Source: a virus (Duplodnaviria > Heunggongvirae > Uroviricota > Caudoviricetes). From it: a DNA stretch of 36,128 bases. The DNA is taken from positions 1 to 36,128 of IMG/VR virus record IMGVR_UViG_2778261667_000013. The stretch is one strand, 5' to 3'. Below are positions 9,737-15,993 of the stretch, piece after piece. The notes under the pieces are model-generated. The model did no database searches. It saw only the letters and a program-made list of their open reading frames with translations, and was not told the DNA's origin. Position numbers and translations under genes: made by a program. Every line of letters starts with the position of its first letter. The stretch's first letter is position 1.

Positions 9737-12018
9737 CAGTAAGTTCCTCCCGTGCCTCTGTTGCCGTCCTGAAGGTTGTATTTGTTCACTGCCTCCGCCA
9801 CGACCTGACCATCGAGCACCAGTTGTGTGGTGAAATTAATGGGGCTGGCAGGTGGTCCCCAGTGCGTGAGGTATTCCGGCTGGGTGATGCGTCCGGGTTG
9901 CTTTGATGCTGTTTCAGACGCTGCCATTCCGGCTTGCTGTCGGACTTGTTCTGGTGTTGGCAGAGAATCACCGGCGATAACCCCGGTTTTTTTCAGTTCG
10001 TCAAGATACTGCTGGATCCATTTCTCGTTTTCTGTTGAGTAACCTTCGCCAAACTGCCACCACGGCTGATATTTTTCACGGGCAGCATCAATCAGCCACT
10101 GAGGATATTTAGTCCGTATATTTTTCCAGCGCTCCTCGCTTCCTTCGACGGCGGCGTCTTCTTCCGGGCTGGTTGCAGTGGCCAGTGCCGTAACGGTGCC
10201 ACCGAAAGAAAGCAGGCTACCGGCAATGCCGGGGAATTTAAATCCTTTGCCTTTTTTGACCGTGTTTTCAATTACATCACCGACAACCTCGCCAGCCTTG
10301 CCACCGGGTTTACCCCCGGTCAGGATTTTGATCCCGGCCCATGTCAGAGCCGCTGCGGTCATCGCTTCAATGGCTGTCGTGGCACCCACCACTGCTGTGG
10401 TCAGCCCCGGAAATTTTTCACCCGCCCAGCTTATGGCATCGGCCACAGTACCGGACGCATCAGCCAGCTTTTTCATGCTGTCCATTTGTGAAAATTCAAG
10501 CGTGTTTTTAGCCTGTTCGGTTTTAAAATCATTCGTGCCTGACATGAATTTAAAATCCAGATCTCCGGCGCGCTGACCTTCTGGCAGGGTGCGTTGCTGA
10601 CTGATTTCAGCTTCGACCTGCTTTCGGTATTCCGGGTTATTCCTGTAAGCCAGGATTGCCTTCAGTGCCTGCATATCACCGACAAGCTCACCAACACCGA
10701 ACCCCTCAAGAATTTTCGCCATAGACTCCAGAATTTTGTCCTGCTGGCCTTTGTCTTTTGTTGCTGCCAGGCGCTTCTGAAGCTCCTGATATTGTTTGTT
10801 GTTCGCGGCGACTTTATCAGCAAGGCGTGAAAATGCCTCTATCGGATCAATGCCGTTTTCCATAGCTCGGGTCAATGTACCGGGTAAATCAATACCCTTG
10901 CCATCAATCGTGATGCTTTTCGCCCTTGTTGCTGATTCACTACTGAAAAGTTTGGCCAACAGGTTTACAACGTTATTACCTGCCTCACTGCTGCTGCCTG
11001 CGGCAATACCTGCGACCTCATTAAATGCCAGTAATTTCTGGAATCCATCCAGTCCTTTCATTCCGGCGTTACCAGCTAACGCCATCTGAGGTCCAAGATG
11101 CTCCGCCATATCCCGTAGCTCAAAATTACCGGCTTTACCGGCTGCAATAGCCATATTAAACATGGCCGGAAGATCGTTGTCTGTCAGTCCAAATGTTTGC
11201 TTAGCTTTGGCCGCCATAGTGACCAGATCGCGTGGGGATGCACCGGATGCAGTAGCAAATTTCATAATCTGCGGTAAGAGATTATTCGCGGTATCCCAGG
11301 AAAAAGCGCCGCTGGCCAACATCTCATTCATTGCTTCAGCTGCATCCTCTTTCGTTCCGCCACCATACGTTACCGCCGCGCGGATACTGTTTTTCAGCTT
11401 TTCACGCCCAAACTGCCTGCCTTCCAGACCACCATCACTGAACGCCGTGTTCGCCATCATGCTGAGCTGACGTTCATAACTCATTTGATTTCTGACTGGT
11501 TGCGTCATAATGGCGGCCCCTGCCATAATTCCGCCGCCTATTGTCACGGCATTCCCGCCAAATGCAGCCGCACGGGCAAAACGCCCCCGTTCAGGGATAA
11601 CAGGCGTTTTCGCCATCTTCATCTGAGCCTGAGTGACGCCATCCAGTTCACGCTTGAGTGCCCGGGCTTTTTCCCGGGTGGCCTGCATGGCGCGCTCCTG
11701 CTCCTGCGCAGATTCAAAACCGGCGCGGGCCAGACGGTTATAGCTGGCAACCGTCTGATAAATTTCACGCCGGATTTCACGTTCTGCACGAATACCGAGC
11801 GTTTCCCGGGCACGGGCGGCACGCTGTATCTCTTTTGCCGCCTTTTTCGTGCTGTTAACGCTTTCCTGCTCGGTACGCTTCTGCTCTGCGCCTGCCTTCC
11901 GTGTCGCCTTTGTTACACCTTCGGTGGCTTTGATAACCTGTTTTTGTCCCTTTTCCAGAACCTGCGAGGCTTCGTCCTTCGCAGTCAGGGTCATGCCAAC
12001 TTTGAAATTACCGGCCAT
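9736..12018 (-). CDS. tail tape measure protein
   Basis: 760 aa, Ala/Gly-rich with predicted long helical regions and hydrophobic Gly-rich central segments; located between tail chaperone and N-like gene. Confidence 0.8.
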   Translation of the reverse strand: MAGNFKVGMTLTAKDEASQVLEKGQKQVIKATEGVTKATRKAGAEQKRTEQESVNSTKKAAKEIQRAARARETLGIRAEREIRREIYQTVASYNRLARAGFESAQEQERAMQATREKARALKRELDGVTQAQMKMAKTPVIPERGRFARAAAFGGNAVTIGGGIMAGAAIMTQPVRNQMSYERQLSMMANTAFSDGGLEGRQFGREKLKNSIRAAVTYGGGTKEDAAEAMNEMLASGAFSWDTANNLLPQIMKFATASGASPRDLVTMAAKAKQTFGLTDNDLPAMFNMAIAAGKAGNFELRDMAEHLGPQMALAGNAGMKGLDGFQKLLAFNEVAGIAAGSSSEAGNNVVNLLAKLFSSESATRAKSITIDGKGIDLPGTLTRAMENGIDPIEAFSRLADKVAANNKQYQELQKRLAATKDKGQQDKILESMAKILEGFGVGELVGDMQALKAILAYRNNPEYRKQVEAEISQQRTLPEGQRAGDLDFKFMSGTNDFKTEQAKNTLEFSQMDSMKKLADASGTVADAISWAGEKFPGLTTAVVGATTAIEAMTAAALTWAGIKILTGGKPGGKAGEVVGDVIENTVKKGKGFKFPGIAGSLLSFGGTVTALATATSPEEDAAVEGSEERWKNIRTKYPQWLIDAAREKYQPWWQFGEGYSTENEKWIQQYLDELKKTGVIAGDSLPTPEQVRQQAGMAASETASKQPGRITQPEYLTHWGPPASPINFTTQLVLDGQVVAEAVNKYNLQDGNRGTGGTY

Positions 12019-12177
12019 TTTTCTGCTTACCTTTTCTGCGTTTCTTTCTGAGGGATTTAAATGACTGGCGGGTGGTCTGTGAGGTGTCCTTCCTTCCTGA
12101 GCCGCCGTTCAGCCTGTCAACGGCGGCAAGCCAGCCGTCCAGCTCGGGACGGCTCATGGTCATGATTTGCTCTTCGG

Positions 12178-12561
12178 TTATTCCGTAGCGCCCGAGGATG
12201 AGGACTGCGAGCCGGAGTCCGGCGAGCCGGGATTCCCGCCGTTCCGCTTTACCTTCAGGACGTTGCGTGATGCCAGCAGAATATTAAAATCGTCCGGCGT
12301 CATGTTGTCGTGTAACAGCTCCGCCGTCAGTTCTTCCTGCGGAATATCCCCCAGACGGACCAGCGTTGCCGCCATCACCGCACAGCGGAAGTAATAATCC
12401 GCCGCGAAGCCATCCACCGTCTGAAAGCGTTCTTCAGTTTCTTCCAGTGCCTGCCCGTTATCACGCATGACCGGCAGACGCAGCTCAAAGTTTTTATGAA
12501 CGGTGCCGTTAAACACCACGCCATCAGACAGTTCGCCAGTCTGTGTATTAATCAAAGTCAT
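12178..12561 (-). CDS. tail assembly chaperone (Mu gp41-like)
   Basis: 127 aa acidic ORF between tail tube and tape measure genes, the canonical chaperone position; Ser/Gly-rich C-terminus; overlapping -1 frame is open (see findings). Confidence 0.5.
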   Translation of the reverse strand: MTLINTQTGELSDGVVFNGTVHKNFELRLPVMRDNGQALEETEERFQTVDGFAADYYFRCAVMAATLVRLGDIPQEELTAELLHDNMTPDDFNILLASRNVLKVKRNGGNPGSPDSGSQSSSSGATE

Positions 12562-15651: not shown

Positions 15652-15993
15652 TTACTTCTCCTTTTTGTCCGCTTTTTGTGTTTTCTGTGCGGCGTTCAGC
15701 TGTGCAGTCAGCTCACTGACTTTCTGGCGTTCTTCTTCCAGTTGCGCCGTCAGTTCGCTGACTTTCTGACGCTCGGCATCCAGCTGTGCGGCCAGTTCAT
15801 CCCCCCGGGCCGCGTCGTTCTGGCCGGATGCTTTATCGCGCTCCACCACAATCAGCATGGGGTCAGCCTTCAGCACCGCCAGCTGTTCCGGGGTGAACGC
15901 ATCCGCAGGCCATTCCTTCGTGGTTGCGCTGTGTGCCACACCGCAGCGGCGAAAACCCTCACGGCGGGCGGTAATTTCAATCACCTTTTCCAT
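15652..15993 (-). CDS. small head-associated protein (Mu gp35-like) with tandem peptide repeat
   Basis: 113 aa directly downstream of major head gene; internal tandem repeat ERQKVSELTAQL x2 encoded by a ~39 bp direct repeat. Confidence 0.5.
   Translation of the reverse strand: MEKVIEITARREGFRRCGVAHSATTKEWPADAFTPEQLAVLKADPMLIVVERDKASGQNDAARGDELAAQLDAERQKVSELTAQLEEERQKVSELTAQLNAAQKTQKADKKEK

Follow-up and report, generated by a model that had tools for sequence, protein, structure and literature searches.

A probable non-canonical -1 frameshift in the gene for the tail assembly chaperone of a Mu-like prophage

In phages lambda (gpG/gpGT) and P2 (gpE/gpE+E'), a -1 frameshift directly upstream of the tape measure gene gives rise to a minor, C-terminally extended form of the tail assembly chaperone (PMC5009743). 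Both genes carry canonical slippery heptamers (U_UUU_UUG in P2), and the lambda G/GT ratio of ~30:1 is in line with a shift of a few percent (PMC5009743). Phage Mu likewise has a frameshift product of its chaperone gp41 (Mu_41/Mu_56, AF083977), in this case from a -2 shift at a G-rich site that is annotated as experimentally verified (PMID 15469818; PMC5009743). Here, we analyzed the tail assembly chaperone gene in positions 1 to 36,128 of IMG/VR virus record IMGVR_UViG_2778261667_000013 (Caudoviricetes); we refer to this whole stretch of 36,128 nucleotides (nt) as the window. We propose that its chaperone gene very probably undergoes a programmed -1 frameshift, an event of a well-known kind which has gone unannotated here.

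The proposed slippage would involve a single tRNA, as described for the insertion sequence IS1222 of the IS3 family (G_CGA_AAG) and for Bacillus subtilis cdd (A_CGA_AAG). At these A_AAG sites, one tRNA-Lys moves from AAG to AAA, the P-site codon is unable to re-pair, and a downstream structure is needed (PMC4066793, PMC5009743). In Escherichia coli, A_AAG shifts far more readily than any other tetramer, and tetramers are used by 87 elements of the IS1 and IS3 families. Frameshifting at A_AAG reaches 5.6% with a strong downstream stimulator and is ~0.15%, roughly background, without one; the tetramer is ~10-fold below the best heptamers (PMC4066793).

Results

The zero-frame product of the chaperone open reading frame (ORF), a protein of 127 amino acids, matches phrog_508 'tail assembly chaperone' (E=2.7e-40), the family into which Mu gp41 also falls (E=6e-49). 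The chaperone ORF, the ORF in its -1 frame, and the tape measure gene all lie on the minus strand, with the ORF pair sitting between the tail tube and tape measure genes (Table 1). A first-pass annotation of the window had reported a -1 frame open across the chaperone/tape-measure junction, and we confirmed it. This frame (codons starting at coordinates 1 mod 3) is open for 91 codons, has stops only at its two ends (12286-12284 and 12010-12008), overlaps the final 34 codons of the chaperone, and terminates 11 nt into the tape measure gene. The same annotation was right that the interval from the chaperone stop to the start codon of the tape measure gene is not empty, although we count 159 nt rather than 158 bp. 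It was also right that the frame contains an internal ATG (12163, 14 nt past the chaperone stop), but the peptide starting there has 51 residues and not 52, and of the extension this ORF covers just the C-terminal two thirds. That ATG is the first ATG, GTG, or TTG of the open -1 frame; none occurs in the first 28 codons of the extension. Elsewhere in the window, -1 stretches open across gene ends have a median of 39 codons, and the longer ones are simply the next gene; the 91-codon length by itself is not extreme. An overlap of 34 codons which lacks a start codon and whose sequence is kept in relatives is, on comparative grounds, well beyond chance.

We gathered ~60 related loci from IMG/VR, GTDB genomes, GenBank phages, and Logan assemblies. 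The clade to which the window belongs is enterobacterial (E. coli, Citrobacter, Escherichia albertii, Yersinia, Buttiauxella, and Trabulsiella) and extends down to chaperone identities of 52-54%. When we compared the orthologous loci, the -1 frame was never interrupted by a stop downstream of the shift site in any relative examined. The extension is conserved at 24-73% identity across relatives from the first codons past the site, and the relatives have in common a domain, xLAG[LY]RLAxLALGRYGI[TS]ExQ..M[ST]..EL[DE]G.L, which is followed by a basic tail. The zero-frame tails past the site are, by contrast, unrelated Ser/Pro-rich low-complexity sequences of varying length. Measured from ATG 12163, the conserved domain starts 28 codons upstream, directly past the slip site; in relatives, the position matching the Met region of this ATG often holds Leu or no residue, and several relatives have no ATG, GTG, or TTG in the first 40 or more codons of the extension (one locus, L047, has none at all). 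Because several relatives lack start codons and the domain begins upstream, independent initiation cannot be the way in which the family expresses it. We also considered the non-canonical starts AUC and AUA in the -1 frame and set them aside; in several clade members the first AUC is followed by -1 stops.

The pattern of substitutions also favors the -1 frame. Of the distinct variants in the 66-nt overlap, 23 leave only the -1 product unchanged and seven only the zero-frame product, where the possible changes split 60:54 (bias toward -1-silent, p=0.02). Taken with the extension identities, these comparisons indicate that relatives conserve the alternative-frame protein and that purifying selection acts on it. 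One further locus, from a distant relative (L068:1700-1990; IMG/VR UViG_3300005403_000050), carries an extension-like domain (ARLILVLLQMGFSYTDALGL...) in the +1/-2 frame relative to its chaperone, and it seems that one chaperone family combines -1 shifting with shifts of -2 (as in Mu) or +1.

Scanning the overlap for slippery sites, we identified the candidate site as the tetramer A_AAG (12250-12247) within G_GUA_AAG; it is the sole efficient Z_ZZN motif that can be read from the overlap. In ~30 relatives at 30-41% chaperone identity, A_AAA_AAG or G_GGA_AAG/A aligns codon for codon with the G_GUA_AAG of the window, such that the zero-frame K-V-K-R of the window aligns with K-K-K-R. A_AAA_AAG is present in nearly all of ~25 distinct loci, and G_GGA_AAG or G_GGA_AAA in one subclade; in every relative with a heptamer, the -1 ORF continues from the site to the tape measure start. 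Within the clade, the site takes the forms G_GUA_AAG, G_GCA_AAG, G_GAA_AAG, and A_GCA_AAG, and the tetramer A_AAG alone is retained (invariant in 12 of 12 clade sequences). The codons GUA AAG (12252-12247) stand in the chaperone frame and allow tRNA-Lys to re-pair cognately in -1. In several clade members there are -1 stops three to four codons upstream of A_AAG, and substitutions that are silent in -1 and change the zero frame begin two codons past it (GAA->GAG, CGG->AGG/AGA). Because of these upstream stops, the onset of -1-silent substitutions, and the inefficiency of the other Z_ZZN motif, the proposed shift maps to A_AAG. The tetramer evidently replaced an ancestral A_AAA_AAG in the clade.

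Three other candidate elements around the site were rejected. Stimulation of a -1 shift by an upstream Shine-Dalgarno-like element needs a spacing of ~10-14 nt; the only such element, AAGG, is 2 nt before the site and too close. The CGG codon after AAG is not a 'hungry' codon, as CGG accounts for 111 of the 673 Arg codons in the prophage and is not rare. The second tetramer, G_GGC (12193-12190), hardly shifts (PMC4066793), and slippage at that position would leave the conserved AERRESRLAGLRLAVLIL out of the product.

Downstream of the candidate site the sequence is unusually constant. In the 35 nt past A_AAG, 2 of 35 columns vary, compared with 15 of 33 in the remaining dual-coded stretch (12 clade sequences; Fisher p=2e-4), and eight invariant bases upstream extend the conserved stretch to a 46-nt island. 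The conserved -1 peptide LAGLR accounts for part of this constancy. In folding predictions the island forms a hairpin with a minimum free energy of -17.3 kcal/mol, which consists of an outer stem CGGA/UCCG (12246-12243 with 12216-12213) and an inner 7-bp stem CGGCGGG/CUCGCCG (12241-12235 with 12226-12220) around an 8-nt loop (12234-12227), with a 5-nt spacer between AAG and the inner stem; the stimulatory structures of such tetramers lie ~5-9 nt away. RNAalifold on the 12 clade sequences independently gave the same hairpin, and 95.5% of cells in the clade alignment are paired versus 20-45% when the partners are slid. One pair shows a compensatory change from G-C to A-U in L091, L087 carries G-U to A-U, and the changes in the Yersinia copy (L089) are limited to the loop and the internal loop; a bulge is variable in the clade. 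In wider-family relatives, the window hairpin is 63% paired versus 34-42% in slid controls, which is suggestive only, and folding potential varies among relatives with heptamers. A pseudoknot between the loop CCCGG and UCGGG (12195-12191) was rejected; it would have just 4-5 bp and is weakened by G->A in several clade members. On this evidence we lean slightly toward the hairpin acting as a stimulator of the shift.

These results suggest the following scheme. Most ribosomes would read the chaperone ORF to its stop and release the 127-residue protein. A minority would slip one base back, with tRNA-Lys on AAG (12249-12247) re-pairing with AAA (12250-12248), and would then continue through GCG GAA CGG ... 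in the -1 frame until the stop at 12010-12008 is reached. The predicted product has 184 residues, namely chaperone residues 1-105 and a 79-residue extension. One tRNA would slip on the tetramer A_AAG within G_GUA_AAG, rather than two on a tandem heptamer, and the GC-rich hairpin 5 nt downstream (12241-12220, extended 12246-12213) would probably pause the ribosome and bring the shift into the few-percent range. By analogy with lambda G/GT, we infer that the N-terminal part common to both products would bind to the tape measure protein, and that recruitment of the tail tube protein would fall to the extension.

Several observations weigh against this scheme. As the first-pass annotation had found, the overlap contains no canonical X_XXY_YYZ heptamer; the P-site codon GUA would mismatch at its middle base after a -1 shift, and the GCA or GAA found at this position in the clade would do so likewise. 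In-frame A_AAG occurs 41 times in the prophage genes, so that the motif alone means little. The hairpin has only a single compensatory event behind it, it is no more stable than composition-matched dinucleotide shuffles (z=-0.66 and +0.2 to +0.4), and RNAalifold gives no consensus structure in the wider family. One clade member, L088 (E. coli GCA_002973135.1, JZQG01000002.1), breaks the stem, its 3' arm being changed from CUCGCCG to CUCGAAG. The ATG 14 nt past the chaperone stop could permit re-initiation of a 51-residue product, and no database entry annotates a fusion in the clade of the window. L088 is also altered in the upstream CUGAAGG and retains A_AAG and the -1 ORF; it could be a decaying prophage or could use a different stimulator. 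The comparison of related loci nevertheless supports the earlier suggestion of a conserved tail-chaperone frameshift, minus its canonical heptamer, and we regard a programmed -1 shift as very probable.

A second possibility is that the extension region is made only as a separately initiated 51-residue protein that starts at ATG 12163, for instance through termination-reinitiation, the clade having lost frameshifting together with the heptamer. The ATG is retained within the clade, the ORF is predicted by the Prokaryotic Genome Annotation Pipeline (PGAP) and by further gene callers, small ORFs of this type are modeled by phrog_3114, and it is only in the clade of the window that the canonical heptamer is degenerate. 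However, the conserved domain starts 28 codons before this ATG, and a protein initiated there would miss LAGLRLAVLILGRYGITEEQI; these upstream -1 codons are under purifying selection in the clade, starting two codons past A_AAG, and many relatives have Leu or no residue where the Met aligns. Moreover, the Shine-Dalgarno sequence upstream of the ATG is weak (GAAGAG), and the invariant island and the hairpin would be left without purpose. We therefore consider exclusive initiation at ATG 12163 unlikely; the 51-residue protein is possible as an additional product beside the fusion.

A fusion could also arise by transcriptional slippage, in which the polymerase adds or drops a base and some mRNAs join both parts in frame. 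Polymerase slippage is known at runs of 8 A (PMC5009743), many relatives carry an 8-A run before G (TAAAAAAAAG), and rare in-frame fused versions in Logan assemblies are joined exactly at the A-run. Yet the window and its clade have just three consecutive A (GGUAAAG), which is far too short, and the fused entries, found on one to two contigs each, are most simply homopolymer length errors. This mechanism is highly improbable for the window and conceivable in relatives with A8 runs. The fused entries (P0044, P0047, P0060, and P0062, from Logan; relatives of L047 and L023) are 170-174-residue proteins joined in frame at the A-run (…LKK/A…), and the common form is the unfused one of 131 residues. 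We did not accept these database proteins as 'Rosetta stone' evidence for the fusion, as they come from rare Logan contigs and are probably A-run length errors or variants. A separate set of proteins from E. coli assemblies (P0009, P0006, P0033, and P0024) switches frame repeatedly, P0009 running from zero-frame …KVK into AERRES… and then back, a pattern that points to indel-ridden assemblies and not to biology.

Finally, we give almost no credence to the idea that GC-rich composition and the nearby tape measure gene leave the -1 frame open as a by-product, with no extended protein made and conservation reflecting the zero frame only: its open length alone is not extreme and neither the extension nor the RNA has a Pfam, Rfam, or PDB match, but the -1 peptide is kept where the zero-frame tails are unrelated, the substitution spectrum favors the -1 frame, and relatives have canonical slippery heptamers at the frame junction, so that these comparative data exclude chance.

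Database searches placed the extension in two PHROG families. The region of the 51-residue ORF matches phrog_3114 (E=3.6e-16), and a phrog_2768 match begins at residue 23 of the open -1 frame, upstream of ATG 12163. Pfam returned no family for the chaperone or for the extension (the window and 17 relatives for the extension, Phage_P2_GpE included), a PDB sequence search with the extension profile gave spurious matches only, Rfam across 12000-12400 gave sub-threshold chance matches only, and a DNA-level search of a phage collection found no match. A word-indexed protein search with the -1 peptide returned close relatives only. When the predicted fusion was compared with 5.8 billion proteins, only the unfused chaperone was found, at 57% query cover and always named 'hypothetical'. 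PGAP labels the chaperone and the 51-52-residue ORF as two separate hypothetical proteins; the related Citrobacter, E. albertii, and Yersinia entries are likewise 'hypothetical protein', and none is marked as a frameshift product. The non-canonical A_AAG site probably explains why annotation has missed the frameshift.

The window as a whole (1-36128) is a nearly complete Mu-like transposable prophage; gp37 is also among the Mu-type genes found in it, along with those in Table 1. The label 'Mu-like' given at first pass fits both the prophage, by its Mu gene set, and the chaperone, by the family common to it and Mu gp41. The prophage is present in 55-56 of 5,426 complete E. coli genomes (~1%), among them enteropathogenic E. 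coli E2348/69; two of the matching places were counted as plasmid records. At the far end of the locus, the extension ORF (…AAA AAU GGC CGG UAA) runs past the tape measure AUG at 12018, and this overlap (AUGGCCGGUAA) is retained throughout the clade; translation of the frameshift product may be coupled to that of the tape measure protein. Elsewhere in the prophage, a 113-residue ORF at 15652-15993 on the minus strand ('HI1506-related protein' in E. coli M8) is internally duplicated in tandem, with ERQKVSELTAQL occurring twice.

Table 1. Features of the chaperone locus and of the surrounding prophage, in window coordinates.
Feature	Position	Strand	Details
Tail assembly chaperone ORF, zero frame, short product	12561-12178	minus	127 amino acids; stop TAA 12180-12178
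-1 open frame across chaperone end	12283-12011	minus	91 codons; stop 12010-12008
-1 extension	12011..12247	minus	79 codons; stop 12010-12008
Small ORF from internal ATG 12163	12008..12163	minus	51 amino acids; PGAP call
Candidate shift site G_GUA_AAG	12253-12247	minus	tetramer A_AAG at 12250-12247
Nearly invariant 46-nt island, CUGAAGGYAAAG and next 34 nt	12258-12213	minus	clade alignments
Predicted hairpin	12246-12213	minus	folding and clade alignment
Tape measure protein gene	12018-9736	minus	PF10145, E=2.6e-21
Tail tube gene	12932-12558	minus	phrog_185
Tail sheath gene	14366-12945	minus	
MuA transposase	35849-33807		
AAA+ MuB-like ATPase gene	33788-32895		
Mu portal	21933-20338		
Mu F	20351-19185		
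Protease I	18481-17312		
Capsid gpT	16947-15997		
Tail fibre	2876-594		

Discussion

The locus described here would be functionally of the same kind as the tail-chaperone frameshifts of lambda G/GT, P2, and Mu. It agrees with this type in position, in the homology of its upstream ORF to known tail assembly chaperones, and in overlap; only the canonical heptamer is missing. Its sequence has no significant relationship to the lambda and P2 proteins. As in lambda and P2, the predicted -1 shift lies directly upstream of the tape measure gene and would give a minor product with a C-terminal extension. The resemblance to P2 does not reach far into the extension itself. P2 E' shows a loose likeness in one motif, M-S-x-x-E-L-x-x-W after a hydrophobic stretch, but hhalign gave a probability of 10%, searching P2 E+E' with the extension profile (hmmsearch) gave no significant match, and P2 E' belongs to phrog_1756/6416 whereas the window extension belongs to phrog_3114/2768.

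Mu has the same gene order as the window (sheath, tube, chaperone, tape measure, and DNA circularisation protein) in addition to a chaperone of the same PHROG. Its shift is -2, in contrast to the -1 geometry of the window, where the +1/-2 frame spanning the chaperone stop has only ~43 open codons and falls short of the tape measure gene, unlike the Mu arrangement. The Mu extension has no detectable similarity to that of the window.

Closer extensions are found in Klebsiella phage ST405-OXA48phi1.1 (MK388859) and Ralstonia phage YO374_1, whose chaperones are 36-37% identical to that of the window and whose extensions are homologous. Their shift site is at the same aligned codons, K-K-R, and loci of this type have a canonical heptamer, often in an A8 run, and lack the invariant CGGAACGGCGGGAAUCCCGGCUCGCCGGACUCCG element of the window clade; they too are annotated as separate hypothetical proteins. 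In its slip mechanism, as proposed, the window is closest to the A_AAG sites of IS elements. Like IS1222 and cdd, it would rely on a single tRNA-Lys and a downstream structure (here G_GUA_AAG and a predicted hairpin), although those sites are in transposase or cellular genes and this one is in a phage chaperone gene.

For annotation, the finding calls for a correction: the chaperone and a truncated ORF of 51-52 residues are now 'hypothetical' in every complete E. coli genome that carries the prophage. It also shows the reason that frameshift finders based on heptamers fail at an A_AAG site. The cassette is compact (60 nt), and the contributions of A_AAG and the hairpin could be measured against orthologous A_AAA_AAG cassettes. 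The understanding of tail assembly is unchanged, and a specialist will not be surprised, but the family offers a tidy evolutionary example. We put forward, tentatively and as something less than an even prospect, that the clade swapped the ancestral A_AAA_AAG for a bare A_AAG and that a newly fixed hairpin, almost invariant, made up for the loss. If true, the clade would illustrate, in nature, how a slip site and its stimulator can co-evolve inside a single family of orthologous genes, and this same chaperone family would also hold -2 solutions (Mu, possibly L068) and the G_GGA_AAG solution.

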